A DNA stretch of 64,000 bases. It comes from Nitrospirota bacterium. Lineage in GTDB: Bacteria > Nitrospirota > Nitrospiria > 2-01-FULL-66-17. Below are positions 49,059-64,000 of this stretch, one piece after another. The translations under genes and the position numbers were made by a program. The notes below the pieces were generated by a model. The model was not told the DNA's origin. It saw only the letters and a list, made by a program, of their open reading frames with translations, and searched no databases. Positions within the stretch are counted from its first letter, which is position 1; each line of letters begins with the position of its first letter. The DNA is taken from positions 1,753 to 65,752 of the forward strand of contig JACQCD010000121.1 in NCBI GenBank assembly GCA_016201825.1, read 5' to 3'.

Positions 49059-49190
49059 GGGCCGGTTTGACGGCTGGCCGATCGCGCCATGCTACCGCGA
49101 CGGGATATCAACGGGGCGCGCGAGCGCTCCCGGTGTGTCAGGTCGCGTGTCACCCCGCCGGTTCTCGGCGGGTTTCGCGACGGTGGAGGG

Positions 49191-51575
49191 ATGTCAATCA
49201 TGGCTCGCCATCGGTTGGACGTGGTCATCGCGGGGGCGGGCCCGGCCGGTTTGAGTGCGGCCGGCCACGCCCAGGCCAACGGCGTGTCTTACGTCCTGCT
49301 TGAGAAGACCGACCACCTCGCCGATACCGTCTTTAGCTACCAGAAACGCAAACACGTCATGTCCGAGCCGGGGCTCATCCCGCTTCGGGGGCCGCTGGCG
49401 TTTGAGGCGGGCACGCGTGAGTCCATCCTCGACGGGTGGAACCGGTTCGCGACGCAGGGCCGGTTGAACGTGTGTTACAGCCAACCCGTCACCGGGATCG
49501 TGTCACGCGACGGCGGATTCCTGGTCAACACCCCGACCGATGAGTACGAAGCGGGGAAGGTGATCCTGTCGATCGGCACGCAAGGCAACCCCCGCAAGCT
49601 CGGCGCGCCGGGCGAAGACCTCCCGCACATCACGAGCCGTCTCATCGACCCGGATGCGTTTGCCGATCAGGACATCGTGGTGGTCGGCGGCGGCGACGCG
49701 GCGATCGAGGTCGCCGTGGCGCTGTGCGAAAAGAATCGGGTCAGCATGGTGGTACGAACGCCCGAGTTCATCCGTGTGAAGGAGGCGCTCGAGCGCGAGG
49801 TGCTGGGCCGGGAGCGGGCCGGCCAGATGAAGATTTTTTACAACTCGGCGGTGAAGCGGGTCGAGCCCGGCTCGATCGAGCTCAAGACGCCGGACCGCGA
49901 CGTGGTCGTGCCGGCCGCCCACGTGATTCTCAAGATCGGCACGCAGCCGCCGCGGGCGTTCTTGGAAACCCTCGGGGTGCGGTTCCCCTCGGCGGATCGC
50001 GAAGCCCAGCCCGTCCTCAATCAGTATTACGAGTCGAGCGTGCCGGGGTTGTTCCTCATCGGCGCCGTCAGCGGGCGGCCGCTGATCAAGCTCGGCATCA
50101 ACCAGGGGTACGAGGTCATCGAGCACCTGTTGGGGCGGCCCGTCGAGCCGGCCGACGAGGACCTGCTCAAGGCCAAGCTGCCGTTCCTCCGCGGAACGGC
50201 GCGGGAGCGCATTCGCCGCGCGGCGAACGGGGTGCCGATCCTGGCCGCCGCGGACGACGAGTCGCTGCGCGAGGTGTTCCTCGCCGCCACCGTGCGGTCC
50301 TGCCGCCACGGCGAGGTGATTTTTCGGCAGAACGACTACACCGACAGCTTCCTCGCGATCCTCGACGGCCCGGTCGACATCTCCGTGGCCGCGGACGACG
50401 GCGCCGCGCGCCGGGTGGCCACGTTGTCGGCGGGGAGCTTCTTCGGCGAAATGAGCCTGATTTCCGGGCGCCGGCGGTCGGCCACGGCCACGTCGGTGGG
50501 CGAGACCCGGCTTCTCGAGATCCCGCGCAAGCCGATGCTCAAATTGGTCTACACCTCGCCCGCGGTGAGCGAGATTCTCAACCGCACGTACCTGATTCGC
50601 GCGTTTCAGAGCTATCTATTTCCTCAGGCGACCGACAACGAGTTGCGCGATCTGGCCATGACGGCGGTGGCACAGAAGCTCGAGAAGAACACGGCGGTGT
50701 TCCGCGAGGGGGAGCCGGGCGACGCGTTCTACCTGATTCGCAGCGGGATGGTGAAGATCGCCAAGGCGTCGGGCGTGAAGGAGCTGGTGTTGGCGTACCT
50801 TCCGGCGGGGCAGTACTTCGGTGAGATGGCGCTGCTCTCGGGCGAGCCGCGCAGCGCGACGGTCACGGCGATTTTCCCCACCGAGCTGATCCGCCTCGGC
50901 AAAGACGACTTCTTGCGGTTCTTGGAGGCCCGCCGCGAGTTGAAGGAGCGGATCGCGCGCGAGGCCGAGCGGCGCCGGTTGGCGACGCTCGAGGCCCAGG
51001 CGGGGACCGAGGGAGGCGGCGTGCTGGGCGAGTTGATCCGCGAGGAGGTCGTGATCGGGACCGACGTCCTTTTGATCGACGAGCATCGGTGTGTACGCTG
51101 CAACAATTGCGTCAAAGCCTGCGAGGGCGTCCACGAGGACGGTCAGGCGCGCCTCTCCCTGACCGGGACCACGTTCTACAACCTCCTGGTCCCGAACTCG
51201 TGCCGCCACTGCGAGAACCCGCTGTGCATGACCGACTGTCCCCCCGACGCGATCGCGCGCGACCCGCGCGGGGAGGTGTACATCAAGAACAACTGCATCG
51301 GGTGCGGCAACTGTGCGAAGAATTGTCCCTACGGCAACATCTTCATGGTCCATCCCAAGGCTCAGCACGGAATCCTGGGCTGGCTCAAGGCCCTCTGGCC
51401 GGGGGCCGGTGAAGAATCGGGACGATCGGTCGCCGTGAAGTGCGACCTGTGCCGGGACATCGCGGGCGGGCCGGCGTGTGTGCGGAGCTGCCCCACCGGC
51501 GCCGCGATCCGGCTCAAGCCCGAGGAATCCCGGCGGCAGATCGAGCGCCTTGTCGCGCGCGGGAGCGGCGCCTGA
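49191..51575 (+). CDS. fusion protein: TrxR-type FAD/NAD(P)H oxidoreductase (no CxxC) + two cyclic-nucleotide-binding domains + 4x[4Fe-4S] ferredoxin module
   Basis: RBS GGAGGG. VVIAGAGPAGLSAA and VVVGGGDAAIEVA. Two cNMP motifs FFGEMSLISGRRRSATA and YFGEMALLSGEPRSATV. Cys clusters CVRCNNCVKAC, CRHCENPLCMTDCP, CIGCGNCAKNCP, CDLCRD…CVRSCP. No signal peptide. Confidence 0.82.
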   Translation: MSIMARHRLDVVIAGAGPAGLSAAGHAQANGVSYVLLEKTDHLADTVFSYQKRKHVMSEPGLIPLRGPLAFEAGTRESILDGWNRFATQGRLNVCYSQPVTGIVSRDGGFLVNTPTDEYEAGKVILSIGTQGNPRKLGAPGEDLPHITSRLIDPDAFADQDIVVVGGGDAAIEVAVALCEKNRVSMVVRTPEFIRVKEALEREVLGRERAGQMKIFYNSAVKRVEPGSIELKTPDRDVVVPAAHVILKIGTQPPRAFLETLGVRFPSADREAQPVLNQYYESSVPGLFLIGAVSGRPLIKLGINQGYEVIEHLLGRPVEPADEDLLKAKLPFLRGTARERIRRAANGVPILAAADDESLREVFLAATVRSCRHGEVIFRQNDYTDSFLAILDGPVDISVAADDGAARRVATLSAGSFFGEMSLISGRRRSATATSVGETRLLEIPRKPMLKLVYTSPAVSEILNRTYLIRAFQSYLFPQATDNELRDLAMTAVAQKLEKNTAVFREGEPGDAFYLIRSGMVKIAKASGVKELVLAYLPAGQYFGEMALLSGEPRSATVTAIFPTELIRLGKDDFLRFLEARRELKERIAREAERRRLATLEAQAGTEGGGVLGELIREEVVIGTDVLLIDEHRCVRCNNCVKACEGVHEDGQARLSLTGTTFYNLLVPNSCRHCENPLCMTDCPPDAIARDPRGEVYIKNNCIGCGNCAKNCPYGNIFMVHPKAQHGILGWLKALWPGAGEESGRSVAVKCDLCRDIAGGPACVRSCPTGAAIRLKPEESRRQIERLVARGSGA

Positions 51576-52408
51576 TGTTGTTGGCCACGCCCCTGAGCGC
51601 GCGGTGGCGCCGCATATCCTGGTGGCTGCTCGTCCTGCTGACGGCGGCGTATGTGTGGGCCGCCTATCCGGACGCCGCGCACGGAGGATCCCGAGTCGGC
51701 ATCGCGTACGGGATCATCGGCTCGGCGCTCATCCTGCTCCTCCTCGCGTTCGGGATTCGCAAGCGGCGGTATCGAAGCCGGCTCGGCCGCGTCGAATCGT
51801 GGCTGCAGTCCCACGTCTACCTCGGCCTCCTCGTGGTGGTCGTCATTCTGCTGCACTCCGGCTTTCGCTTCCACGACCTGATCGCCGTGACGGCGTTCGC
51901 GCTTCTGGGCGTGGTCGTGGCGAGCGGCGTGGTCGGCGCCGTCGCGTACACGCTCGTGCCGGCGTGGCTGACCGAGGCCGAGAGCAACCTCACGCCGCAG
52001 CAGATCTCCGACCGGCTCAACCAGCTCGCCCAGTCGATGGGACGTCTGGCGTCGGGGAAGTCCGCCCCGTTCCGCGCGACCTGCACGCGCCTGCTCCGCG
52101 CGGAGCGGCCGGGCTGGTTTGCGGGGTGGCGCGTCGTCTGGTCCCGCGGCGCCGGTTCGCCGACGGGCGAGCTGGGCGGCGCGTGGCAGGCGCTTCGCGA
52201 CCAGGTCGGGCTCGAGGAGCGGGGAGATTTTGACGCGCTGCTCGTGCTGTCGCGCCAGCGACAGGACCTGCACCGGCGGTTGATCGCCCGGCAGCGGTAC
52301 AAGAACCTGATCGAGGCGTGGTTATACCTCCACGTCCCGCTGTCCGTTGCGATGCTCGTGGCCATTGCGGCGCACGTCACGGCGTTCTTCTACTACGTGG
52401 CGCCGTAG
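51575..52408 (+). CDS. 5-TM membrane protein with two H-x13-H pairs (candidate di-heme b transmembrane electron carrier)
   Basis: The ATG overlaps the previous stop (TGATG). H80/H94 in TM3 (SHVYLGLLVVVVILLHS, nt 51812 and 51854). H253/H267 in TM5 (LHVPLSVAMLVAIAAHV, nt 52331 and 52373). The Arg-rich loops fit positive-inside topology. Confidence 0.7.
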   Translation: MLLATPLSARWRRISWWLLVLLTAAYVWAAYPDAAHGGSRVGIAYGIIGSALILLLLAFGIRKRRYRSRLGRVESWLQSHVYLGLLVVVVILLHSGFRFHDLIAVTAFALLGVVVASGVVGAVAYTLVPAWLTEAESNLTPQQISDRLNQLAQSMGRLASGKSAPFRATCTRLLRAERPGWFAGWRVVWSRGAGSPTGELGGAWQALRDQVGLEERGDFDALLVLSRQRQDLHRRLIARQRYKNLIEAWLYLHVPLSVAMLVAIAAHVTAFFYYVAP

Positions 52409-52416
52409 GGTCCGAC

Positions 52417-54084
52417 GTGGCCTATCGCCTCATCAGACACGCCGACGGCCGGATCGAAACCACCGAGGTGGCGGGACCGGCGCTACGGATCGGCCGAGGC
52501 ACCAATGCCGACCTGCGGTTCGACGACACGGCGGTGGCGCTCGAACACGCCCGCATCGAACAGACCGACGGCGGGTTCCTGCTGACCGATCTGGGCGGCG
52601 TCACGGGCTGCTACGTCAACGGATCACGGGTCACGTCGACGCGCTTGGCCGGAGGGGACCGAATCGAGATCGGTCCGTTTCTGATCGACGTCACGCTGCC
52701 CCGAGGACCGGGCGAGTCGGTGGCGCTCGATGTCCGGCCGGTGGCCGGGGCGAGGGCGGCGCGCGGGGCGATCGATGCCAAGCCGATCGATTATGCCAAG
52801 GCCTACGCGCTCAACCGATGGTTTGCGAACAAGCCCCTCTTGACGCTGGTCGCGACGGCGGGGCTCGGCGCGTTGTTGAGCGGGATTCTGTGGGCGGGGA
52901 AGACCGAACTGTTCCGACCGGGCTCGGTCACGGTCGCCCATGCGCTTTTCACCAATCAGTGCGAGCGCTGCCACACGGCGTGGACCGGCGTCTCCGAGAA
53001 GGCGTGCCGGGGCTGCCACGTCCCGGCGGTCCACCACGACGACCAGGCCGATGCCCCGTCGTGTCTGGCCTGCCACGCCGAGCATCGCGGCCAAGCGGCG
53101 CTGGCCGGCGTGGCGACGCGAGACTGCGTCGCCTGCCACCGCCAGCTCCAGACCAAGGATCATTCGCCGCTTTCGTTCGCGGATCGGACCACCGACTTCG
53201 CGACCGATCATCCCGAGTTCGCGATCACCCGGGTCGTCAATGGGAAGAAGGAGCGCGTGCGATTGGACGTGCCCGGCGCGCGTCGCGCCGACGCCGCTTC
53301 GATCAAGCTCAATCACAAGGTCCATCTCAAGCCGGCTCTCAAAGGGCCCAAGGGCCCCGTCCAACTCGCGTGCCGCGACTGCCATCTTCCGGCCGAGGAC
53401 GGCGCGCGCATGGCGCCGGTGACGTACCAGGAGCGGTGCAAGGGATGCCATGAGCTGGGGTTCGACCCCCGCTTTCCAGACCGCGTCGTCCCGCACGTGC
53501 CCCCGGCCGACGTGCGCGCGTACCTCGTGGCGGAGTATACCGAGAACGCGGGCGCTTTAGTGTCGAAAGGCGGGGGGGCGGATCGGCTCGCGGGGCCGCG
53601 GTTTCCGGGGCCCGCGCGCTCGCCGTCGCTGGAGTGGGTGATGGAGCAGGTCGCCGTCGACGAGCGCCACCTGTACACCTCCGCGTGCCCCGAGTGCCAT
53701 GCGGTGCGCGCGGACGCGCGGCCGGTTCCCGAGATTGAGCCGACGCGGGTCCCCTCGTCGTGGCTGTCGCACGCGCGGTTCGCGCACCGCTCGCACGCCC
53801 AGTTGGAGTGCGGCGCCTGCCACGAAAACGTGGAGAAGAGCGCCGACACGAGCGACGTCCTGCTCCCGGGGATCGAGATCTGCCGCCGGTGCCACCGCGC
53901 GGCCGATCCGACGCCGAGGCTGCAGGCAGATCGGGCGAGCATCGACTGCGTCGCGTGTCATCGCTACCACGACGGGCCGGCCAAACCGGGGCCTGAGGGC
54001 TCGTTCACCATCCGGCGTTTGCTGGACGGAGTGGACCCCGGACGACGGGAACCGCGTCCCATGTCCGAAGGGCCTCAGACATGA
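52417..54084 (+). CDS. FHA domain - TM helix - decaheme c-type cytochrome
   Basis: GTG at 52417. FHA-like LRIGRGTNADLRFDD…HARIE…FLLTDLGG…YVNGSRV…GDRIEIG. TM LLTLVATAGLGALLSGILWAG. Ten CXXCH motifs (CERCH, CRGCH, CLACH, CVACH, CRDCH, CKGCH, CPECH, CGACH, CRRCH, CVACH). Confidence 0.82.
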   Translation: MAYRLIRHADGRIETTEVAGPALRIGRGTNADLRFDDTAVALEHARIEQTDGGFLLTDLGGVTGCYVNGSRVTSTRLAGGDRIEIGPFLIDVTLPRGPGESVALDVRPVAGARAARGAIDAKPIDYAKAYALNRWFANKPLLTLVATAGLGALLSGILWAGKTELFRPGSVTVAHALFTNQCERCHTAWTGVSEKACRGCHVPAVHHDDQADAPSCLACHAEHRGQAALAGVATRDCVACHRQLQTKDHSPLSFADRTTDFATDHPEFAITRVVNGKKERVRLDVPGARRADAASIKLNHKVHLKPALKGPKGPVQLACRDCHLPAEDGARMAPVTYQERCKGCHELGFDPRFPDRVVPHVPPADVRAYLVAEYTENAGALVSKGGGADRLAGPRFPGPARSPSLEWVMEQVAVDERHLYTSACPECHAVRADARPVPEIEPTRVPSSWLSHARFAHRSHAQLECGACHENVEKSADTSDVLLPGIEICRRCHRAADPTPRLQADRASIDCVACHRYHDGPAKPGPEGSFTIRRLLDGVDPGRREPRPMSEGPQT

Positions 54085-55619
54085 AACACTCGCCGCGAAC
54101 GTCAACCGGGAACGTGTCCGCTCTCGCGCGGATGGGGTTGCTTGCGGCGCTGGCGTTCGTCGCCGGCTGCGGCGGCGGGACGAGTGTTGATCAGAGCCTG
54201 ATCTGCGACGGGTCCGGCGCGCCGCTGTCGGCCGCCGAGGTCTCGGGCATCGTGACAAACGCCGCCTCGGCAATCGACGCGCCCGCCATGACGGTCGCCG
54301 TCGTGGACCGGAACGGGAACGTCCTCGCCGTGTATCGGCAGCCGGGCGCTTCGGCCGCGAACGACGACCTGGCCGTGTCGCTCGCGCGCACCGCCGCGTT
54401 CTTCAGCAACAACCAGGCGCCGCTCTCCTCCCGCACCGTGCGATTCATCAGCGGGATCCACTTCCCGCCGGGGATCAGCTTCACCCCTCCCGCCGCGCTG
54501 TACGGGATCGAGAATACCAATCGCGGCTGCGAACTGAACGTCACGTTCAACCCCGGCAAGGCGGTGCCGCCGGCCAAGTCGGTGGCCGGCGGGTCCTGCA
54601 ACAGCACCGACCGCAGCGGGTGCGGACGGGGGATCACGACGGGCAAGGCCGATCTCGCCGACAGCGACCCCGCGGCGGTGAACCCCGGCGGCGTGCCGCT
54701 GTTCCGCGGGTGCACGGTGGTGGGCGGCGTCGGCGTGGCCGGCGCGCCCGGCGCCCACGCCGAGTTCGCCGCGCTCGCGGGGGCCTCGGCGTTCCCGCCG
54801 AGTATCGCGCCACCCGGCATCGTGGTGATCGACGGCGTGCGCCTGCCGTTTGTCGAGCAGACCACCCAGCCGTCGGGCACGACCGCCGGGAGCGCGGCGG
54901 GCGCGTTCGTCGTCGGGCCGGTGGCCGGCGCCGGCGTCCCGGAGGGGTATCTGGCGGGGCCCGTCGCGGGGTCGCGGTTGTCGGCGGCCGAGGTGGATCG
55001 GATCGTCCAACAATCGGTCCAGACCGCCGACCGCACGCGGGCTGCAATCCGCCTCCCGATCGGCCTGCGCACGCGGATGGCGATCGCCGTCGGCGACGTG
55101 GACGGAACGATCCTCGCGCTGTACCGGATGCCAGACAGCACGGTGTTTTCCATCGATGTGGCCGTGGCCAAGGCGCGTAACGTCGTCTACTTCAGCGGGC
55201 CCGATCCCAATGCGGCGGCCGACCTCCCGGGCGTGCCCGCGGGCACGGCCGTCACCAACCGGACGATCAGCTTTGGCAGCCAACCCTTGTTCCCTCCGGG
55301 TATCGACGGCGGCAGCGGTGTCGGCCCGTTCTTCAGTCTGTTTCAGAACGATACGGCTGCGGCGTGCTCGCAGGGGAGCCAGGCGGTGAACGCCAACCAG
55401 AGCGGGATCGTCTTCTTCCCCGGGAGCCTGCCGCTGTACGCGAACGGCATCCTCGCCGGCGGCTTGGGGATCAGCGGCGACGGCGTGGAGCAGGACGACT
55501 ACGTGTCCGCGGGGGGCGCGACGGGCTTCGAATCCCCGGAAGGCATTCGAGCCGACGGCGTCTCGATCCGGGGCGTGCGCCTGCCGTTTCTGAAGTTCCC
55601 TCGGAACCCGGAGGGGTGA
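54081..55619 (+). CDS. lipoprotein with two GlcG/HbpS-like (DUF336, heme-binding/'heme-degrading') domains
   Basis: Lipobox LAFVAGC. Both halves show LSAAEV…(I/A)VAVVD/AIAVGDVDG…LAVYR/LALYRM…A(R/K)(T/A)…FFS/YFS and GG(V/L)PL(F/Y)…GG(V/L)G(V/I)(A/S)G. The ATG overlaps the previous stop. Confidence 0.7.
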   Translation: MKHSPRTSTGNVSALARMGLLAALAFVAGCGGGTSVDQSLICDGSGAPLSAAEVSGIVTNAASAIDAPAMTVAVVDRNGNVLAVYRQPGASAANDDLAVSLARTAAFFSNNQAPLSSRTVRFISGIHFPPGISFTPPAALYGIENTNRGCELNVTFNPGKAVPPAKSVAGGSCNSTDRSGCGRGITTGKADLADSDPAAVNPGGVPLFRGCTVVGGVGVAGAPGAHAEFAALAGASAFPPSIAPPGIVVIDGVRLPFVEQTTQPSGTTAGSAAGAFVVGPVAGAGVPEGYLAGPVAGSRLSAAEVDRIVQQSVQTADRTRAAIRLPIGLRTRMAIAVGDVDGTILALYRMPDSTVFSIDVAVAKARNVVYFSGPDPNAAADLPGVPAGTAVTNRTISFGSQPLFPPGIDGGSGVGPFFSLFQNDTAAACSQGSQAVNANQSGIVFFPGSLPLYANGILAGGLGISGDGVEQDDYVSAGGATGFESPEGIRADGVSIRGVRLPFLKFPRNPEG

Positions 55620-57367
55620 TGCGCGCGACGCGTCGGTGGTCCGGGGTCTTGATGGTTGGCGCATTCGTGGGACTCCTCGGCCTCGTCCCGGGGCCCGACT
55701 CAGCGGGGGCCGCCGAGGGCGACGAGGGAGAAGAGCGGCTGCCGCGACGGCCGCTCGCGCCCGTCACCGAGCCGCGCGAGCCCCTGCTCCCGCAAGAGAT
55801 GCCGGACGGCCGAGGCTTCGTGCCGCTTCCCGACCGGTGGACGATCGCGCCGCCGCCGTACGAGCTGAACGTGAAGGGGCATTGGTGGGATCCGTACAAC
55901 CAGAACCTTCTCAAGGGCGATCGGCCGATGTGGGGTCAGGACACGTTCCTCAACCTGACGCTGGCGTCGGAGACCCTCGCGGAGTACCGCGCCGTGCCGA
56001 CGCCCGGCGGCGTGAGCGCCGAGCGCGCGGGGAGCGCGGCGTTGTTTGGCGCGCGCGAGCAGGGGGCGTTCAGTCAGAACCTGATCGTGTCGGCCGACCT
56101 GTTCAAGGGCGACACGGCGTTTCGGCCGTTCGACTGGCGGGTCAAGGGCACCGTGATCGCCAACCTGAATTTCTTCGACGTCCGGGAACGGGGGATCGTC
56201 AACGTCGACGTGCGCGAGGGCGTGAACCGCCGGGATGGATTCTTTGCGCTGCAAGAGTTCTTTGTCGAGGCCAAGTACAAGGACCGCAGCCCCAACTACG
56301 ATTTCGTGTCGGTCCGGGCCGGCCTCCAGCCGTTTTCGAGCGACTTCCGGGGTTTCGTGTTCACGGACACGAACCTGGGCGTGCGCCTCTTCGGCAACGC
56401 CGAGTCCAACCGCGACCAGTATAACCTCGCGTTCTTCGACCAGCGAGAGAAAGAGACTAATAGCGGCTTGAACCGCTTCGAGCGTCGCGGCCAAGAGGTG
56501 TTCGTGGGCAACGTCTACCGCCAGGACTTCCTGGTGCCGGGCTATACCGCGCAGGTGAGCGCGCACTACCTGCTCGACGAGGAGAGCCTGCACTTCGACG
56601 AGAACGGCTTTCTGGCCCGGCCGGACGCCGTCGGTGTGTTCAAACCCCACGAGATCCGGGCCGCGTACTACGGGTGGGCGGGATCAGGGCACGCGGGGCG
56701 CGTCAACGTCGAGCACGCCGCGTACTACGTCGTGGGCGAGGACCGGCGCAACCCGATCGCCGGGCGCGAGGTCGATATCCGAGCCGGGATGGCGGCGCTG
56801 GAAGTGTCGTACGATCACGACTGGTTCCGGCCCAAGGTCTCATACTTCTACGCCTCCGGCGACGGCAACCCGACCGACGATACCGCTCGGGGGTTCGACG
56901 CGATCTTCGACAACCCGGCGTTCGCGGGCGGACCGTTCAGCTTTTGGAACCGACTTGGCCTCCGCCTGGCGGGCACCGGCGTGGCGCTGGTCAACCGCGG
57001 GAGCGTGCTGCCCGACCTTCGCAGCAGCAAGGAGGAAGGGCAGCCCAACTTCGTCAACCCCGGCATTCATCTCGTCAGCGCGGGTGTCGATGTGGATGTC
57101 ACGCCGAAACTCAAAGGCGTCCTCAACGCCAACTACCTGCGGTTCGACCAGACCGAGGCGCTCGAGTTCCTGCTCTTTCAGGCACCGATCCACAAGGACA
57201 TCGGGTGGGACCTCGGCGCCGGCTTGCGGTATCGGCCGTTGTTGAGCAATAACATCGTGATCCTCGCCGGCGTCGCGGCGTTCATTCCCGGCGAAGGATT
57301 CAAGGACATCTACGAATCGGGCCGCGTGTTGCAGATGGCGTTCACCACGGCGACGCTGGTGTTCTAG
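55619..57367 (+). CDS. outer-membrane beta-barrel (porin-like) protein
   Basis: Signal peptide GVLMVGAFVGLLGLVPGPDSAGA. Alternating beta-strand pattern with many aromatic girdle residues. The C-terminus …TTATLVF ends in Phe. The ATG overlaps the previous stop (TGATG). Confidence 0.72.
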   Translation: MRATRRWSGVLMVGAFVGLLGLVPGPDSAGAAEGDEGEERLPRRPLAPVTEPREPLLPQEMPDGRGFVPLPDRWTIAPPPYELNVKGHWWDPYNQNLLKGDRPMWGQDTFLNLTLASETLAEYRAVPTPGGVSAERAGSAALFGAREQGAFSQNLIVSADLFKGDTAFRPFDWRVKGTVIANLNFFDVRERGIVNVDVREGVNRRDGFFALQEFFVEAKYKDRSPNYDFVSVRAGLQPFSSDFRGFVFTDTNLGVRLFGNAESNRDQYNLAFFDQREKETNSGLNRFERRGQEVFVGNVYRQDFLVPGYTAQVSAHYLLDEESLHFDENGFLARPDAVGVFKPHEIRAAYYGWAGSGHAGRVNVEHAAYYVVGEDRRNPIAGREVDIRAGMAALEVSYDHDWFRPKVSYFYASGDGNPTDDTARGFDAIFDNPAFAGGPFSFWNRLGLRLAGTGVALVNRGSVLPDLRSSKEEGQPNFVNPGIHLVSAGVDVDVTPKLKGVLNANYLRFDQTEALEFLLFQAPIHKDIGWDLGAGLRYRPLLSNNIVILAGVAAFIPGEGFKDIYESGRVLQMAFTTATLVF

Positions 57368-57388
57368 CGCGCAGCCTCGGAGGATCGG

Positions 57389-60300
57389 ATGCGTGACGGT
57401 GACATGAAGACGCGATCGTGGCGGCCGACCTTGACGATCGTCCTGGTCCTCGCCCTGACCGCGGTGGGAGCGTCCCGTTTGTTCTCCGGGGAGCCCTCGA
57501 AAGACCTTCCCGACCTTCACCGGCAACCGGAGACGCTGGCCGACGAGAAGAGCGAGGGGTGTCGGGGATGCCACGAGGGGATCGAGCCGATGCACGCGTC
57601 CCCCGCCGTGAAGCTCGCCTGCGTCGACTGCCACGGCGGAAACGGCGACGCCAAGATCGCGACCGGCGTGGAGCGCGGCTCCGACGAGTACGAGGGCGTC
57701 AAGCGGCAGGCGCACGTTGCGCCCCGGTTCCCCGCGCGGTGGGCGGGGCCTGACGGGCGCTACCGCGCGGCCAACCCCGAGGGCAGCTACACGCTGCTGT
57801 TGGACGAGTCGCCCGAATTCGTGCGCTTCGTCAACCCGGGGGATCTTCGTGTGGCCGTGGAGACGTGTGGGCGCTGTCACGACGACGAGGTCGCGGCCGT
57901 CCGGCGGAGCACGATGACGACGTCGGCGATCTTCTGGGGCGCCGCGGGATACGCGAACGGGATCGTGTCGCCCAAGCGCTCGATCTTCGGCGAGGGCTAC
58001 GGTCGCGACGGCACGCCGCAACTGATCCGTCCCGCCGCGCCGCCCACCGCGGAGGAGAAGCGCAAGGGCGCGTTGCCGTTCCTGGTGCCGCTGCCTCGCT
58101 GGGAGATCATCCAGCCCGGCGATAACTTCCGGGCCTTCGAGGACGGCGGTCTGCTGCAACCGTCGGCCTTCCCCGAGATCGGCAATCCCAACCCACTCGA
58201 CGAACCCGGCAAGCCCGACATCCGCTTGAGCAGTCGCGGCCTCGGCACAGGCCTGCGGGTGAGCATCCCGGTCCTCAACATCCACAAGACGCGGCTGAAC
58301 GACCCGCACCTCTCGTTCCTCGGGACCAACGACCACCCGGGGGACTACCGCTCCAGCGGCTGTACCGCGTGCCACGTCGTCTACGCCAACGACCGCGACC
58401 CTGCGCACTCGGGGCCCTATGCCGAGTTCGGCCACCTGGGCCGCAGCGCGACCGACGACCCCACGATCTCCAAGAACGAATCGGGCCACCCCATCCGCCA
58501 CCGACTCACCCGCGCCGTGCCGTCCAGCCAGTGCATGACCTGCCACATGCACCAGCCGAACTCGTTTATCAATACGTATTACGGGTATAACCTGTGGGAC
58601 TACGAGACCGACGGCGGGTTCCTGTGGCCCGCGAAGCAGCAGTACCCCACCGAAGCCGATCGGCGCCTGATCCTCGACTCCAACCCCGACGGCGCGTCGG
58701 TGCGCGGGCTCTGGTCGGACCCCGCCTTCCTCGCGCGGGTGAGCGAGCTCAATCCCAAGCTGCAGCAGACCCAGTTCGCGGACTACCACGGACACGGCTG
58801 GATCTTCCGCGCCGTGTACAAGCGAGACCGCAAGGGCAATTTGTTGGACGCGGAGGACAAGCCGGTCGCGTTCGAGGACCCCAAGCGCTTCGAGAAGGCG
58901 GTTCACCTCGCGGACATTCATATGGAGAAGGGCATGCACTGCGTGGACTGCCACTTCACGGTGGACAGCCACGGCAACGGTACGCTCTACGGCGAGTACG
59001 GTCACGCCATCGAGATCGCCTGTGAGGATTGTCATGGCACGACCAGGGTGCGGGCCACGCTCCGGACGTCGGGCCCAGCGTCGCCCGCGGGCGGCACCGA
59101 TCTGCTCATCAAGACCACGCCGTTCGGCCGCCCGCAGTTCGCGTGGCGCGAGGGCAAGCTGTTCCAGCGCTCGATGCTGAAGCGGGATCTGGAGTGGGAG
59201 GTTGTCCAGGTGCTCGACTCGATCACGCCGGGCAACGCCCACTACAGCGAGAAGTCCCGCCTGGCGAAGACGATCCAGCGGGACGGAAAAACGTGGGGCC
59301 GCGGCGACGTCGACGACGCGTCGCTCGCCCACTCCAACCAGAAGATGACGTGCTACGCGTGTCATTCGTCGTGGATGACGTCATGTTTTGGCTGCCACCT
59401 GCCGCAGCAGGCGAACCAAAAATCCGACAAGCACCACTTCGAGAGCGGCACGACCCGGCAGTACAGCTCGTACGACATGCAGGTGGTGCGGGACGACGTC
59501 TTCATGCTCGGGATCAACGGGACGGTGGAAGGGCACAAGGTCGCGCCCGTCCGGTCGTCCAGCGCCGTGATGCTCAGCTCGACCAACCTGAACCGGCAGC
59601 GGTTCTACATCCAGCAGCCCACGATCTCCGCTCCGGGATTCAACGGCCAGGCGTTCAACCCCCACGTGCCGCACACCGTGCGCGCGCGCGAAACCAAAGG
59701 GTGCGCCGACTGCCACGTCTCCGCGCAGAACGACAACAATGCGTGGATGGCGCAACTCCTCCTGCTGGGGACCAAGTTCGTCAACTTCATGGGCCGCTTC
59801 GCGTGGGTCGCGGAAGGGGAGGCGGGCCTCGAAGCCGTCGGGGTCACCGAGTGGGAGGAGCCGCAGGCCGTGCTCGGGAGTTTTCTGCACCGCCTGGCCT
59901 ACCCTGACGCGTGGGCCGACCACCAAAAGCGCCGCCTCGAATTATCCGAAGCCCACCACCACGAGGGGGGCGGGGAGGCTCGGAGCCTGGTCAAGCGCGG
60001 GGAGTACCTCTATGCTGCGCTCGGACCCAAGGGCTTCGAGGTCTTCGACGTCGCGAACGTGGACAACAAGGACGCCTCCGAACGGATCGTGACGGCTCCG
60101 GTGTCGCCGCTCGGCCAGCGCACGTACGTCCGCACCTCGTATGCGACGGCCGTGGCGCTGCCGACGAACATGCCGATCGCGCCCTACCGAAAAGGGCTCC
60201 CGGAGAACGAGGAACAGGCGTGGCACCCGCTCTACCACTACGCCTACGTGACCGATCGCGACGAGGGGCTGATCGTCGTCAACGTGGACACGTTGGCCGA

Positions 60301-61156
60301 CCGGGACCCCACGAACAACTTCCTCGAGCGCGCCGCCACGTTCAACCCCGACGGTGAACTGAACGGCGCCCGCAACCTGGCGATCGCGGGGCGGTACGTG
60401 TACGTGGCCTGCGAGCGGGGCTTGGCCGTGGTGGACATCGATGATCCGCTGCACCCGCGCATCGCCGCGCGGCTGCACGACGTCGCTCGGCCCACGTCGG
60501 TGGCGATCCAGTTCCGGTACGCGTTCATGACCGACGCCGAGGGACTCACGGTGGCGGACGTCACCGACCCCCGCGCGCCGCGGGTGGTCGCGCGCCTGCC
60601 GATCGCCGAGGCCAAGAGCGTCTACGTGTCGCGCACCTACGCCTACGTGGCGGCCGGCCGGACGGGCCTGGTGATCGTCGACGTCGAGCGGCCCGATCGG
60701 CCGCGGATCGACCAGGTCTACACGGCCGACGGGCGGATCGCCGACGCGCGCGACGTGAAGGTCGCCTCGACGAACGCGAGCCTGTTCGCGTACGTCGCCG
60801 ACGGTGCGGGTGGACTCAAGGTCATCCAGCTCACGTCGCCCGAGACCATGCCGGGGTATCTCGGGTTCAGCCCGCGGCCGGAGCCGCGGTTGATCGCCAC
60901 GCGCCGCACGCACGGCCCGGCGCTCGCCGTGGCCGAAGGGCTGGACCGCGACCGCGCCGTGGACGAGAGCGGCCATCAAATCGCCGTGTTCAACCGGATC
61001 GGGGCGCGGCCGTTCCGGTCGGACGAGATGCAGCGCTTGTATCTGAAGGATGGCCGTCTGTACCAGGTCGAGAATACGCCGCCCGCGGCGCCCCAGGAAC
61101 CGCCGAAGGCGGACCGCAAGGGGCGGGCGGGATTGCCAACAAGGGGCGAACGATGA
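57389..61156 (+). CDS. 1255-aa secreted decaheme c-type cytochrome fused to a C-terminal LVIVD-repeat beta-propeller
   Basis: RBS GGAGGA. Signal TLTIVLVLALTAVGA. Ten CXXCH motifs between nt ~57560 and ~59716. Six LVIVD-like repeats at nt ~60000-60845 (GFEVFDVA, GLIVVNVD, GLAVVDID, GLTVADVT, GLVIVDVE, GLKVIQLT). Confidence 0.82.
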   Translation: MRDGDMKTRSWRPTLTIVLVLALTAVGASRLFSGEPSKDLPDLHRQPETLADEKSEGCRGCHEGIEPMHASPAVKLACVDCHGGNGDAKIATGVERGSDEYEGVKRQAHVAPRFPARWAGPDGRYRAANPEGSYTLLLDESPEFVRFVNPGDLRVAVETCGRCHDDEVAAVRRSTMTTSAIFWGAAGYANGIVSPKRSIFGEGYGRDGTPQLIRPAAPPTAEEKRKGALPFLVPLPRWEIIQPGDNFRAFEDGGLLQPSAFPEIGNPNPLDEPGKPDIRLSSRGLGTGLRVSIPVLNIHKTRLNDPHLSFLGTNDHPGDYRSSGCTACHVVYANDRDPAHSGPYAEFGHLGRSATDDPTISKNESGHPIRHRLTRAVPSSQCMTCHMHQPNSFINTYYGYNLWDYETDGGFLWPAKQQYPTEADRRLILDSNPDGASVRGLWSDPAFLARVSELNPKLQQTQFADYHGHGWIFRAVYKRDRKGNLLDAEDKPVAFEDPKRFEKAVHLADIHMEKGMHCVDCHFTVDSHGNGTLYGEYGHAIEIACEDCHGTTRVRATLRTSGPASPAGGTDLLIKTTPFGRPQFAWREGKLFQRSMLKRDLEWEVVQVLDSITPGNAHYSEKSRLAKTIQRDGKTWGRGDVDDASLAHSNQKMTCYACHSSWMTSCFGCHLPQQANQKSDKHHFESGTTRQYSSYDMQVVRDDVFMLGINGTVEGHKVAPVRSSSAVMLSSTNLNRQRFYIQQPTISAPGFNGQAFNPHVPHTVRARETKGCADCHVSAQNDNNAWMAQLLLLGTKFVNFMGRFAWVAEGEAGLEAVGVTEWEEPQAVLGSFLHRLAYPDAWADHQKRRLELSEAHHHEGGGEARSLVKRGEYLYAALGPKGFEVFDVANVDNKDASERIVTAPVSPLGQRTYVRTSYATAVALPTNMPIAPYRKGLPENEEQAWHPLYHYAYVTDRDEGLIVVNVDTLADRDPTNNFLERAATFNPDGELNGARNLAIAGRYVYVACERGLAVVDIDDPLHPRIAARLHDVARPTSVAIQFRYAFMTDAEGLTVADVTDPRAPRVVARLPIAEAKSVYVSRTYAYVAAGRTGLVIVDVERPDRPRIDQVYTADGRIADARDVKVASTNASLFAYVADGAGGLKVIQLTSPETMPGYLGFSPRPEPRLIATRRTHGPALAVAEGLDRDRAVDESGHQIAVFNRIGARPFRSDEMQRLYLKDGRLYQVENTPPAAPQEPPKADRKGRAGLPTRGER

Positions 61157-62523
61157 TGCACAACAGACGAGTCAGGTGGGGGGTGGCGGCGATGGTCGCA
61201 TGCGCGGCGGCGCTGGCGTCTATGGGTCTCGGTCCCGCTCGGGCCGCGGACAATCCGGCGCCGAGCGCCAACGAGAAGCCGCGCCCCGGCCAATACCTGG
61301 GCGCGCCCTCGTGCGCGTCCAGCCACTGCCACGGAAGCGCGCAGCCGCGAACGGCGTACGACGTGCGGCAGAACGAGTACCTCATCTGGCTCAAGCAGGA
61401 CAAGCACACCAAGACCTACAGCGTCCTCTCGAACGCCCTTTCGAAGCGCATCGCCAAGAACATGAAATTGAAGCGGCCGCCGCAAGAGGAGGCGCGGTGC
61501 CTGGACTGTCACGGCCTTGCCGTGGCCGAGGAGCTTCAGGCTCGCCCCGTGGACCTCGCCGACGGGATCTCGTGCGAGGGCTGCCACGGACCGGCCGGAG
61601 GATGGCTGGCGGGGCACACCGAGGAGGGATGGACGCACCAGCGCTCGGTCGAGGCCGGCATGACCGATTTGCGCGATCTCGTGACGCGGACGGAGGTGTG
61701 CTTGGGGTGTCACCTCGGCAAGACCGGCACCGGGGTGGACCACGAGCTGCTCGCGGCCGGCCATCCTGATCTCGTATTCGAGTTGGTCAACTTCAGCGCA
61801 GCGATGCCGGCGCACTGGACGCCGGTGTCCCGGAAGAAAGCCCGCGCGGACCGCCCCGATCGCAACACCGCGCGCGCATGGGCGGTGGGGCAGGTGGTGC
61901 AGTTCCGCGAATCGATGCACCTGACCGCGCGCCGCGCCCAGTCGGGCCGGTGGCCGGACTTCGCCGAGATGGAGTGCACCTCCTGCCACCACGCGCTCAA
62001 CGGCGGCAAGGAGCGGCAGCTCCGGGGGTATTCGCTGGCGGCCGGGCTTCCGGGTACCAGCCCCGCGCGCGTCGCCGTCTTCCGCCACGTGCTCGACACG
62101 TTCTCGCCGGACGACCGCGGTCCGCTGCTCGTGAGCGTGGACCGACTTGCGGCCTCGATCTCGCGCCTGTTTACGCCGCACGAGACGGTGGCGGTCCAGG
62201 CGAACGTGCTCGGGGACGAGACGCGCGGGGTGTTGGACCGGGTCGGGTCCACGGAGATCGACGACGCCTTGACCCGCGTGATGCTGCTGCGGGTGGCCGG
62301 CGACGGAGTCTTTTTGAACAGAGCCGACTTGAGGTCGGCGAAGCAGGTGGCGCTGGCGATCAACGCGCTGGCCGGCGCGCTGGCCGAACACGATCCCAAG
62401 TGGGCCCGCCCGGAGGTCGCGAAGACGATCGACGCGCTGTACGACGACGTCTCCGGCAAAGGTGACTATGACCCACAACGGTTCGTCAAGCACCTCGCGG
62501 CGTTTCGGCGATCGGTGAAGTGA
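61153..62523 (+). CDS. secreted multiheme cytochrome (c554-like N-terminal half, helical C-terminal half)
   Basis: Signal AAMVACAAALASMGLGPARA. CLDCH, CEGCH, CLGCH, CTSCH plus an atypical SCASSHCH (CX4CH) where family members normally carry the first CXXCH. The ATG overlaps the previous stop. Confidence 0.75.
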   Translation: MMHNRRVRWGVAAMVACAAALASMGLGPARAADNPAPSANEKPRPGQYLGAPSCASSHCHGSAQPRTAYDVRQNEYLIWLKQDKHTKTYSVLSNALSKRIAKNMKLKRPPQEEARCLDCHGLAVAEELQARPVDLADGISCEGCHGPAGGWLAGHTEEGWTHQRSVEAGMTDLRDLVTRTEVCLGCHLGKTGTGVDHELLAAGHPDLVFELVNFSAAMPAHWTPVSRKKARADRPDRNTARAWAVGQVVQFRESMHLTARRAQSGRWPDFAEMECTSCHHALNGGKERQLRGYSLAAGLPGTSPARVAVFRHVLDTFSPDDRGPLLVSVDRLAASISRLFTPHETVAVQANVLGDETRGVLDRVGSTEIDDALTRVMLLRVAGDGVFLNRADLRSAKQVALAINALAGALAEHDPKWARPEVAKTIDALYDDVSGKGDYDPQRFVKHLAAFRRSVK

Positions 62524-62560: not shown

Positions 62561-63328
62561 CTACACCTGAAACGTCGCCCCGTCTTCTAAGATGGTCAGG
62601 TTCGTGACCGGAAGTTTCCCCAACTCCCGCCGGATTGCCGCGCGGTACCGCGGCTTCACGTGGTAGACGTAGACGGGGAGGTTCGGCCGTCCCAGCTTGG
62701 CGAACTCGTCGGCTAGCAGCGCAGGCGTGAGGTGTTTGGTCTGTGCGGCGAGACCTTTCAGCGCGTTGGGGAACGAGGTCTCGATCATGGCGGCCTTCAG
62801 GTCGGGTGTGGCGGCCGCCGCCTTCCAGAGGTGATCCGTCCGGTACGTATCCCCGCTGTAGAGGAGCGAGCCTCGCCGATCACGGATCAAGAAACCCGCG
62901 CACGGGACGGTGTGGTTGACGGCGAACGCGCGGACCCGGAGGTCGTCGAGTTGAATCGCCGTGCCTTCGTCGATCGCCTCGAGCCGAAAGAGCGGATGGG
63001 TCGGCGTGGGGATCTTGGTGAAGTCGGGCCAGAGGCGGTCGTTGAAGACGTGGCGTTTCAGTTCGTCGATCACCTTCTTCAGGCTGACGATCACGATCGA
63101 CTGTGGCACGCCGTTCTCGATCAGATTCTCGGACAGGAGGGGGAGGCTCTTGATGTGATCCATGTGGATGTGCGACACGAGGACGTAGCGGATCTTCCGC
63201 TGCTCCGCGATCGTCAGCGCCGAGCAGACCGTGCCCGCGTCCACGAGGACCGATCGGTTGATCAGAAAGCCGGAGGTGCCGCACTCGCCCAGCTCCGCGC
63301 CGTGGCACCCCAAGACCCTCACCCTCAT
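62561..63328 (-). CDS. class-II 3',5'-cyclic-nucleotide phosphodiesterase (MBL fold, CpdP-like)
   Basis: MRVRVLGCHG…YVLVSHIHMDHIKSLPLLSE (HxHxDH signature region). Start at the ATG at 63328. The upstream part of ORF 62561..63730 is a shadow frame. Confidence 0.75.
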   Translation of the reverse strand: MRVRVLGCHGAELGECGTSGFLINRSVLVDAGTVCSALTIAEQRKIRYVLVSHIHMDHIKSLPLLSENLIENGVPQSIVIVSLKKVIDELKRHVFNDRLWPDFTKIPTPTHPLFRLEAIDEGTAIQLDDLRVRAFAVNHTVPCAGFLIRDRRGSLLYSGDTYRTDHLWKAAAATPDLKAAMIETSFPNALKGLAAQTKHLTPALLADEFAKLGRPNLPVYVYHVKPRYRAAIRRELGKLPVTNLTILEDGATFQV

Positions 63329-64000
63329 GCGCGCTCCTTTTTGAGTCCCGTGACCTCGTAGACCCGCACGGTCTTGGCCCGTCCCTTGACCGCCAGCTCG
63401 CCCAGATCTTTGAACGCCGCGCGGCCGATCTTCTTGGGCGCTTTGCGGCGATCCGGGTGCCGGATCAGCGCGGTCCGGGCGCGGCGTTCGTCGACCGGCA
63501 CTTCGCGGGCCTCGACCAAGTGCTCGATCGCCCGGTACGTGGAGTCGGTGATGAGGATGCCCGCGTTGTGTTGTCTGGTCAGCGACTCCACGCGCGCGCC
63601 GAGATTGACGTTGTCGCCGATCAGCGTGTAGTCCATCTTCTTGCCCTCGGCGCCCATGTTGCCCACGACCATCTCGCCGGTGTTGATCCCGATCCCCGCA
63701 TCCAGCGGCTCGCGCCCCTCGGCGCGCCACTTCGCCTGCAGCTCGGCGAGCCGGTGTCGCATGTGCAACGCGCAGCGGACAGCCAGCTCGGCGTGGTTGG
63801 GTTGGTCGATGGGCGCGCCCCAGAATACCATGATCGCGTCGCCCACGAACTTGTCCAGGGTCCCGTTCCAGTGGAAGATCACATCGGTCATCGCCTGGAG
63901 ATATTCGTTGAGGGCGGCGACGACCTCCTCCGGCTGGTGGGCCTCGGAGAACGCCGTGAAGCCGCGCACGTCGGAGAAGAGCACCGTCAGCTCCTTACGC
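63325..64000 (-). CDS. class III adenylate/guanylate cyclase catalytic domain (5' end beyond the right edge of the window)
   Basis: …TVLFSDVRGFTAFSE…LDKFVGDAIMVFWGAP…GINTGEMVVGNMG…DYTLIGDNVNLGARVES. The stop overlaps the phosphodiesterase start (ATGA). Confidence 0.85.
   Translation of the reverse strand, partial: RKELTVLFSDVRGFTAFSEAHQPEEVVAALNEYLQAMTDVIFHWNGTLDKFVGDAIMVFWGAPIDQPNHAELAVRCALHMRHRLAELQAKWRAEGREPLDAGIGINTGEMVVGNMGAEGKKMDYTLIGDNVNLGARVESLTRQHNAGILITDSTYRAIEHLVEAREVPVDERRARTALIRHPDRRKAPKKIGRAAFKDLGELAVKGRAKTVRVYEVTGLKKERA

Follow-up and report, generated by a model that had tools for sequence, protein, structure and literature searches.

A five-helix putative di-heme cytochrome b encoded between a flavo-iron-sulfur protein and an FHA-decaheme cytochrome c in a Nitrospirota operon

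How electrons might be passed between the cytoplasm and cytochromes on the other side of the inner membrane is the question raised by a short gene in a 64,000-nt stretch of a Nitrospirota genome (contig JACQCD010000121.1; this whole stretch is hereafter called the window). The gene (51575..52408, + strand) encodes a 277-aa membrane protein and stands directly between the genes for a cytoplasmic flavo-iron-sulfur (FeS) protein and a membrane-anchored decaheme cytochrome c. An initial annotation, made from the sequence alone, had described the product as a five-transmembrane (TM) protein of no named family that carries two H-x13-H pairs on two helices, in a geometry like that of NOX and ferric reductases. 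On the basis of its open reading frame (ORF) translation, AlphaFold2 (AF2) models, family alignments and hidden Markov model (HMM) scans, we assign it here as a putative di-heme cytochrome b, and we think it fairly likely that, within an inner-membrane redox complex of three parts, it would be the subunit that spans the membrane and transfers electrons.

The TGA of the upstream gene ends at position 51575, which is the A of the ATG used here (TGATG, a 1-nt overlap), and a GGGAG lies ~10 nt 5' of this ATG. A longer ORF from GTG 51440 was rejected, because homologues begin at MLL.../MFL... and because the ATG at 51575 overlaps the upstream stop. The translated protein contains histidines at positions 36, 80, 94, 100, 233, 253 and 267; H80 and H94 lie within SHVYLGLLVVVVILLHS and H253 and H267 within LHVPLSVAMLVAIAAHV, with exactly 13 residues inside each pair. 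Two AF2 models (pLDDT 81, from 30 sequences; pLDDT 92 and pTM 0.85, from 112 sequences) agree on five long hydrophobic helices, which cover residues 6-30, 40-62/65, 73-95, 102-133/135 and a long 213-274, of which the last, membrane part is TM5; hydropathy agrees with this count. TM3 (residues 73-95 by the AF2 limits; 51791..51859, +) carries W76-x3-H80-x13-H94, with codons 51812-51814 for H80 and 51854-51856 for H94, and TM5 (residues 247-274; 52313..52396, +) carries W249-x3-H253-x13-H267, with codons 52331-52333 for H253 and 52373-52375 for H267. TM4 (residues 102-127, nt 51878-51955) bears the aligned motif S117-G118-x-x-G121 (51923..51937, +), which reads S117-G118-V-V-G121 in the window, corresponds to the SGXXG of PMC5566968 and, through its small residues, could make room for heme. 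TM4 and TM5 are joined by a cytoplasmic insert that is helical in the AF2 models and Arg-rich in composition (residues 128-246; 51956..52312, +), with 16 Arg, 2 Lys and 11 Asp+Glu among its 119 aa and with helices at 141-159, 164-176, 183-189 and 197-210 in addition to the cytoplasmic extensions of TM4 and TM5. The length of the insert is kept across the family (G121-to-W249 median 128 residues, range 101-205) and its sequence is poorly conserved; it is a candidate docking surface for an FeS module and/or an FHA domain. Thus the five helices, the placing of the pairs on two of them, the Arg-rich loop that had been put at about 115 aa and the overlap of the ATG with the upstream stop were all described correctly by the initial annotation.

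Two or more H-x13-H pairs arise in 0.7% of 200,000 shuffles of the window protein, and the conservation of the histidines is a stronger argument than this chance level. A word-indexed search gave 331 relatives, mostly from metagenome-assembled genomes (MAGs) of Thermoanaerobaculia/Acidobacteriota, and in 30 of them, when aligned, all four histidines are invariant. An exhaustive profile search over 1.84 billion cluster representatives then gave a family of 4,513 clusters (50% identity) at E<=1e-3, or 2,389 at E<=1e-10, with close relatives present in 563 species-level genomes. In a set of 138 sequences, made up of the query and 137 representatives of 50%-identity clusters, H80 and H94 are each found in 138/138 and H253 and H267 in 132/138, and the tryptophans that precede them are nearly as well kept (W76 in 127/138, W249 in 133/138), so that W76/H80/H94 and W249/H253/H267 are conserved in 92-100% of the sequences. 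G118 and G121 are present in all 138, position 117 holds Ser in 109 sequences and Thr in another 26 (135/138), and G84 (137/138) and P255 (129/138) are further positions kept. Even in an alignment with a mean column identity of 24% (A2, 112 sequences), H80, H94 and H253 are invariant and H267 is conserved in at least 90%. Also conserved are the R62-K63-R64 stretch and the glycines of the flanking helices (G42, G46, G84, G118, G121). The family signature is therefore W-x3-H-x13-H on TM3 and on TM5, S-G-x-x-G on TM4 and conserved Gly on TM2. The remaining histidines, H36, H100 and H233, were considered as extra ligands and rejected because they are not conserved beyond the close subfamily.

It is worth noting that the automatic names of family members (P0014, P0015, P0017, P0034, P0312) contradict one another, among them 'membrane channel-forming protein YqfA (hemolysin III family)', 'dihydropyrimidine dehydrogenase subunit PreT' and 'predicted ferric reductase'. 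These annotations are probably wrong. What gives the family real biological interest is its large size, together with the fact that it is experimentally untouched, has no Pfam, NCBIfam or InterPro model and is misnamed by automatic pipelines as hemolysin III, PreT or ferric reductase.

The orientation of the protein follows from two independent kinds of data. Over the whole family, the median numbers of Lys+Arg are 3 in the N-terminus, 0 in loop 1, 5 in loop 2, 0 in loop 3, 18 in loop 4 and 0 in the C-terminus, which reads as a clean positive-inside pattern and predicts a cytoplasmic N-terminus and a periplasmic C-terminus. In a natural fusion (P0240, 758 aa; L083 751-3027), TM5 leads into a segment with five CxxCH motifs, no further TM and no FHA domain. 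Given that heme c is attached in the periplasm, the C-terminal end of TM5 in this protein must be periplasmic. Because charge pattern and fusion agree on this N-in/C-out topology, TM3 and TM5 both run from in to out, and one histidine of each pair (H80, H253) is close to the cytoplasmic face, the other (H94, H267) close to the periplasmic face. In P0240 the five-TM domain is, in addition, physically coupled to a c-type cytochrome, an arrangement reminiscent of Geobacter CbcL, in which a b-type TM domain is fused to a nine-heme c domain.

With this topology, H80+H253 and H94+H267 very probably ligate a cytoplasm-near and a periplasm-near b heme, ~20 A apart, in a four-helix core of TM2-TM5. The two hemes would be sandwiched between TM3 and TM5, with the Gly-rich faces of TM2 and TM4 completing the core, as in cytochrome b of the bc1 complex and in the ferric-reductase/NOX domain. 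Fourteen residues of an alpha-helix span ~21 A, in agreement with the distance that separates the hemes of cytochrome b and of NOX. The ferric reductase domain (FRD) superfamily (PF01794: NOX, FRE, bacterial FRD, MsrQ/YedZ, STEAP) has the same two His pairs on TM3 and TM5 and the same orientation, N-terminus in and TM3 and TM5 in to out, with inner and outer hemes bridged between the helices (PMC3591440). In NOX2, H101 and H115 on TM3 and H209 and H222 on TM5 provide an inner pair, H101+H209, and an outer pair, H115+H222 (PMC3591440); the spacing within the pairs is thus 13/12 in NOX2 versus 13/13 in the window protein. FRD proteins likewise pass electrons from an NAD(P)H-flavin donor inside to an acceptor outside, as we propose here. 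However, they have six TMs, and their long forms carry a C-terminal cytoplasmic FAD/NADPH module, whereas the window protein has five TMs and a periplasmic C-terminus, so that no fused FAD/NADPH domain is possible. It also has the 119-aa helical insert instead of a short TM4-TM5 loop, and its flavin module is encoded in a separate upstream gene of another family, with four [4Fe-4S] clusters between flavin and heme. The Fre+MsrQ two-component system is a precedent for a split version of the ferric-reductase arrangement.

The two neighbouring genes encode candidate partners for such a membrane subunit on its two sides. The window gene is the second of seven same-strand genes (49089-62523, +) of whose junctions four are overlaps (1, 4, 1 and 4 nt) and two are gaps (9 and 22 nt), a tight spacing consistent with a single translationally coupled operon. 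The first gene (49089..51575, +), assigned by Pfam and by matches to PDB sequences, encodes the flavo-FeS protein and likely starts at ATG 49191 or 49200, which would give ~791-794 aa; its homologues have 785-818 aa. The protein has no signal peptide and no TM, and it comprises an N-terminal flavoprotein with two dinucleotide-binding domains, two cyclic-nucleotide-binding (CNB) domains and, at its C-terminus, a ferredoxin module whose four Cys motifs correspond to 4x[4Fe-4S]. Pfam matches are Pyr_redox_3 (2.4e-37), cNMP_binding (1.9e-43, in two stretches) and Fer4_11 with other Fer4 models. Among PDB sequences, residues 42-334 match YpdA/Bdr and thioredoxin reductases, residues 370-645 PKA regulatory subunits, and residues 661-817 HycB3/HycB4 and the formate hydrogenlyase subunit HycB. 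In sequence, the FeS module thus resembles four-cluster electron-wire subunits and the flavin domain resembles NADPH-dependent YpdA/TrxR. The third gene (52417..54084, +), assigned by Pfam and motif count, encodes a 555-aa protein from GTG 52417 with a cytoplasmic FHA domain (Pfam FHA 1.5e-14) that precedes a single TM near residue 141 (52417-52900, +) and, on the periplasmic side, a domain that carries 10 CxxCH motifs and matches Cytochrome_C7 and Cytochrom_CIII.

This order of genes is not peculiar to the window. An ORF with FeS motifs lies directly upstream in at least 75 of 80 species-level genome loci and, by a crude filter, an ORF for 9-10 hemes lies directly downstream in 53 of the 80. 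In five further loci whose family members are relatives at ~21-32% identity, including Methylophilaceae and Xanthomonadaceae, the FeS-protein gene is again directly upstream, and a multiheme-c gene is downstream in four of the five, the fifth (L084) being cut by the contig end; the homologues of the FHA-decaheme protein in distant loci have 530-592 aa. In the HMM-defined family studied here, wherever a locus includes enough flank the FeS gene is the direct upstream neighbour, often with the stop/start overlap, and the first three operon genes are linked in both Acidobacteriota and Proteobacteria. In a Methylophilaceae MAG the three products measure 818/276/556 aa. In the same MAG, small DUF1924 genes (L087 5834-6283 (-) and 11573-11992 (-)) lie on both sides of the triad. 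Homologues are also present in MAGs of Sulfuritalea and Sulfurisoma.

Taken together with the topology, this linkage suggests a direct wire from the FeS C-terminus to the inner heme b, the outer heme b, the FHA-decaheme cytochrome c and the other operon components, a route that we favour by a narrow balance. A direct chain is the simplest reading because the FeS gene is upstream, the FeS module is cytoplasmic and the periplasmic cytochrome is anchored alongside. The chain would begin with NAD(P)H, FAD and four [4Fe-4S] clusters before the inner heme b, and it would end, beyond the outer heme b, in ten c hemes and then the lipoprotein, barrel and LVIVD decaheme cytochrome encoded further downstream in the operon. 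In this way the complex would export reducing power from the cytoplasm, as a modular counterpart of NOX that is independent of quinone; an outward direction of electron flow is favoured by thermodynamics and by a membrane potential that is negative inside. In NOX, cytosolic loops contact the dehydrogenase domain, and by this analogy the polybasic TM2-TM3 loop and the helical TM4-TM5 insert are obvious candidates for docking surfaces. It is from gene order, motifs and alignments that we infer heme binding, the FeS-heme b and heme b-heme c contacts, the direction of flow and its regulation.

The family has been noticed before. He et al. (2017; Front Microbiol 8:1584, PMC5566968) described a conserved protein of the inner membrane (their 'IMP') in the putative porin-cytochrome clusters PCC3 and PCC4, with ~300 aa and five TMs, of which TM4 bears SGXXG and TM3 and TM5 each bear WX3HX13H. 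They likened it to the ferric-reductase domain and cytochrome b, proposing that it holds two b hemes and is quinone-active. The 277 aa of the window protein fall within the ~200-310 aa of IMPs, and by its published description the IMP is like the window protein in all of these motifs. In PCC4 subgroup II the Fe-S gene lies directly upstream of the IMP gene (PMC5566968). Supplementary Table 6 of the same paper lists Gallionella triads in which the redox protein has 796-805 aa, the IMP (with two HX13H) 308-310 aa and the nine-heme cytochrome 544-556 aa, in line with the ~791-794/277/555 aa here. In such IMP triads an Fe-S gene (pfam13247-type) is directly upstream and a membrane-anchored 9-10-heme cytochrome adjoins, as in the window. 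The window operon differs from the published IMP loci in that it also has genes for the HbpS-like lipoprotein, for the putative barrel and for the LVIVD decaheme cytochrome, and the published hosts are Proteobacteria. In addition, a preprint on Ferrigenium straubiae (bioRxiv 10.64898/2026.01.22.701106) reports an FHA-nonaheme cytochrome, 'NHC', beside a five-TM protein and a [4Fe-4S] protein, a triad that was expressed under all conditions tested and that, by analogy of its parts, appears to be the same as the one in the window. For the five-TM Ferrigenium protein the preprint found no InterPro match and no redox motif, and its function was left open (10.64898/2026.01.22.701106); linking the four-His signature to that triad is therefore practically useful. 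With the window gene, a family that has been noted but is uncharacterised gains a new member in a phylum new to it, and the novelty is modest because the di-heme idea was published from sequence analysis in 2017 (PMC5566968).

Several results weigh against a di-heme, electron-exporting subunit. The window protein itself reaches Ni_hydr_CYTB (PF01292) at E=0.028 and 14.6 bits against a gathering cut-off of 30.1, with residues 237-273 on positions 132-164 of the 179-position model, and Ferric_reduct (PF01794) at E=0.045 and 14.3 bits against a cut-off of 28. A Foldseek search of the PDB with both AF2 models gave a best E of 0.26 and TM-scores of at most 0.36, and it retrieved no solved NOX, STEAP, FdnI or CybB structure; profile searches of PDB sequences with alignments A1, A2 and the TM-only A3 found nothing in the TM region. 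No biochemical study of any family member was found in the literature searched. As to the mechanism, outward electron flow would dissipate the membrane potential, and the triad also occurs in obligate Fe(II) oxidisers, where exporting reducing power has no obvious use. Finally, a quinone site is compatible with the results presented here, and He et al. favoured a quinone-active cytochrome b (PMC5566968).

Some of these negative results have limits of their own. Foldseek is weak on all-helical membrane bundles; its best-ranked matches, at E>=0.26, were to BAR domains, helices of ABC transporters and designed heme maquettes, and cytochrome b561 (4o6y) ranked no better than E=2.2. The profile matches of A1, A2 and A3 among PDB sequences were coiled-coil noise in the loop or none, and hhalign of the family profile with single E. 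coli MsrQ and YodB sequences gave a probability of <1%, single-sequence templates being too weak. When 112 members were scanned one by one, 44 matched Ni_hydr_CYTB (E<0.01, best 3.8e-8), 11 DUF4405 and 9 Ferric_reduct, and at most 2/112 members matched any other family. One relative (P0280) passes the Ni_hydr_CYTB gathering score with 31.9 versus 30.1 bits, in another (P0028) a single Ni_hydr_CYTB alignment spans TM2 to TM5 (model positions 15-164), and the best Ferric_reduct score among relatives is 26.4 bits (P0009). Deletion of the insert in silico let positions 2-120 of the 121 of Ferric_reduct align to the window protein (E=1.8e-4, 22 bits, still below 28), and 20 of 26 members in the loop-deleted set match Ni_hydr_CYTB. 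Ni_hydr_CYTB, DUF4405 and Ferric_reduct form one Pfam clan of two-heme membrane cytochromes. At the level of these HMM comparisons, the recurrent remote matches all go to di-heme cytochrome b families, and we conclude that, within the di-heme cytochrome b superfamily, the window protein would represent a separate branch that no model covers. It lies outside PF01794 and PF01292 as currently defined, and no Pfam or NCBIfam model reaches its threshold. The NCBIfam model 'mobilome CxxCx11CxxC protein' (E=0.0059) was rejected, with 16.9 bits versus a cut-off of 70 and no CxxCH or Cx3-4CH found in the protein.

With regard to the initial annotation, the absence of a named family, the conservation of the four histidines in homologues (96-100% of 138 sequences) and the position of one histidine of each pair at each membrane face, the last borne out by the charge pattern and the P0240 fusion, all stood. 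The remote matches went to families that it had named, with sub-threshold HMM matches to b561-type, DUF4405 and Ferric_reduct models; Foldseek gave nothing significant in the PDB. Each of its refuting conditions that could be examined in silico came out in its favour. Conservation, topology and remote HMM matches thus support the di-heme-b reading in silico.

The same data bear on whether the protein holds heme at all. The histidines might instead bind another metal, or serve in a channel or hydrolase of the PAQR/hemolysin-III type, or the protein might be a mere scaffold, as in the 2026 preprint (10.64898/2026.01.22.701106), which reported no InterPro match. The JGI names 'YqfA, hemolysin III family', HlyIII matches in 2/112 members (E ~2e-3) and in one loop-deleted member (1.1e-5), and the lack of a structural neighbour in the Foldseek search would fit such a protein. 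However, the window protein has five TMs, not seven, and no HlyIII match, for which the hemolysin III/PAQR assignment was rejected, and the recurrent matches of the family are to three di-heme b families, not to PAQR. Moreover, two His pairs, the members of each 14 residues apart, on parallel helices with flanking Gly are the bis-heme signature, and a scaffold role leaves the 96-100% conservation of four intramembrane histidines unexplained. We therefore regard a protein without heme as highly improbable.

A more serious challenge concerns not the hemes but the partner with which they exchange electrons. In the model of He et al., the protein would be a quinone-coupled cytochrome b whose two b hemes link periplasmic cytochromes to the quinone pool, as in FdnI, HyaC, NarI and CymA-type modules, with the flavo-FeS protein as an accessory or alternative donor. 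This is the main rival to the direct wire, and some of the evidence points its way. More members match Ni_hydr_CYTB than Ferric_reduct, and the characterised members of Ni_hydr_CYTB (PF01292, 'prokaryotic cytochrome b561': FdnI, HyaC/HydC, CybB), which at 44/112 is the most frequent remote match, are quinone-reactive. The likeness to this family extends to TM5 of the window protein, which falls on the final helix of the Ni_hydr_CYTB model, the one that carries an H-x13-H pair in FdnI; proteins of this family also partner four-cluster ferredoxin subunits such as FdnH and HybA. Y125/P129, together with R62-K63-R64 at the cytoplasmic membrane edge, could, speculatively, form a quinone pocket. The IMPs of PCC3 and of PCC4 subgroup I stand without an FeS partner gene (PMC5566968), and they must therefore have another inner-side partner.

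Yet the likeness to these enzymes has its bounds. Known Ni_hydr_CYTB proteins have four TMs, and the ligands of FdnI are spread 1+1+2 over three helices, whereas the window protein has five TMs and its candidate ligands are placed 2+2 on two helices. The known Ni_hydr_CYTB enzymes have a periplasmic FeS partner and use quinone as acceptor, in contrast to the cytoplasmic FeS partner in the window system. The presence of the FeS gene directly upstream in every family locus with enough flank also speaks against coupling to quinone, as does a cofactor chain that is complete without quinone; no quinone-site motif was identified in the protein. Coupling to the quinone pool thus seems to us unlikely, and the direct wire is retained as the preferred reading.

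Electrons might also travel the same wire in the other direction, from extracellular or periplasmic donors through the multiheme cytochromes to the FeS/flavin protein and a cytoplasmic acceptor. The occurrence of the triad in Fe(II)-oxidising Gallionellaceae (PMC5566968; 10.64898/2026.01.22.701106) would fit an inward flow. The sequence-level arguments go the other way: the flavin domain resembles NAD(P)H-oxidising enzymes, and family scans showed no energy-coupling subunit among the operon genes. In addition, inward flow works against the inside-negative membrane potential, and the reduction of NAD(P)+ (~-320 mV) from donors at the level of Fe(II) or heme c is strongly uphill. A precedent for inward flow exists in the transmembrane complexes TmcABCD, HmcABCDEF and DsrMKJOP of sulfate reducers, in which a di-heme b subunit links a cytoplasmic Fe-S protein to periplasmic multiheme cytochromes c. 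Their b subunits, however, belong to the NarI/HdrE or HydC type, and on the cytoplasmic side they have HdrD-like CCG proteins as partners instead of NAD(P)H flavoproteins that carry CNB domains; no sequence relationship of the window protein to these complexes or to CbcL was detected. An inward wire is, in our estimate, quite improbable, and both it and the non-heme scaffold are less likely than coupling to quinone.

Were the outward wire to operate as proposed, its first and third subunits suggest how it might be controlled. Gating would presumably be by cyclic nucleotide, through the two CNB domains, and by phospho-threonine signalling, through the FHA domain. Extended to the whole family, this leads to the tentative idea, possible rather than probable, that the triad is a widespread quinone-independent 'modular bacterial NOX', switched by cyclic nucleotides and Ser/Thr phosphorylation, which would serve Acidobacteriota and many Proteobacteria as a regulated electron-export valve or extracellular reductase. 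CNB and FHA domains would make the triad one of few respiratory-type complexes with built-in second-messenger control. If the proposed route is true, it would provide the missing inner-membrane step of candidate extracellular-electron-transfer clusters in soil Acidobacteriota and iron-oxidising Betaproteobacteria, and an electron route that need not use the quinone pool.

Some observations on nearby genes touch on this regulation. Directly after the operon lies a gene for a class-II cAMP phosphodiesterase (62561-63730 (-); Pfam PDEase_II 7.7e-16), and in a distant locus (L085 1-965 (-)) a gene for a CHASE2-guanylate/adenylate cyclase lies ~4.7 kb upstream of the triad's first gene; these neighbours are hints of a dedicated cyclic-nucleotide control circuit. 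The window ORFs that were scanned included no gene for a kinase or a phosphatase. In two other loci (L001/L002; L001 6561-7499, 10831-13119), the orthologue of the FHA-decaheme protein shows FHA twice and a separate PatA_N+FHA protein precedes the operon.

The fourth gene (54081..55619, +), which overlaps the FHA-decaheme gene by 4 nt, encodes a lipoprotein with two HbpS-like (GlcG-type) domains (Pfam HbpS-like 4.4e-26, in two stretches) and a lipobox-like LAFVAGC at its N-terminus. A tandem HbpS-like (GlcG/DUF336-type) lipoprotein gene is kept in this position in L001/L002 and L088. For the 582-aa product, from ATG, of the fifth gene (55619..57367, +), we infer a putative outer-membrane beta-barrel from its signal-peptide-like N-terminus, its C-terminal end in ...TTATLVF and its sole and weak family match, to the NCBIfam outer-membrane porin model DESULF_POR1 (E=0.02); it has no Pfam match and no PDB match, and a homologue of 600-690 aa is encoded at the same place in L001, L088 and L089. 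The sixth gene (57389..61156, +), assigned by motifs and Pfam, encodes a secreted 1255-aa protein with an N-terminal signal/TM segment, in which a decaheme cytochrome c (10 CxxCH) is fused to an LVIVD beta-propeller (Pfam LVIVD 2e-24). Below the NCBIfam cut-off it matches ExtM (1.4e-24) and also ExtN and ExtO, cytochromes of Geobacter selenite/tellurite operons, which suggests that its cytochrome part may be distantly related to these proteins. In other loci, HbpS-like, 600-690-aa and LVIVD-cytochrome genes are likewise often found near the triad. The seventh gene (61153..62523, +) overlaps the sixth by 4 nt and encodes a secreted cytochrome c554-like multiheme protein of 456 aa (Pfam Cytochrome_C554 3.6e-9) with a signal peptide, 4 CxxCH and one Cx3CH.

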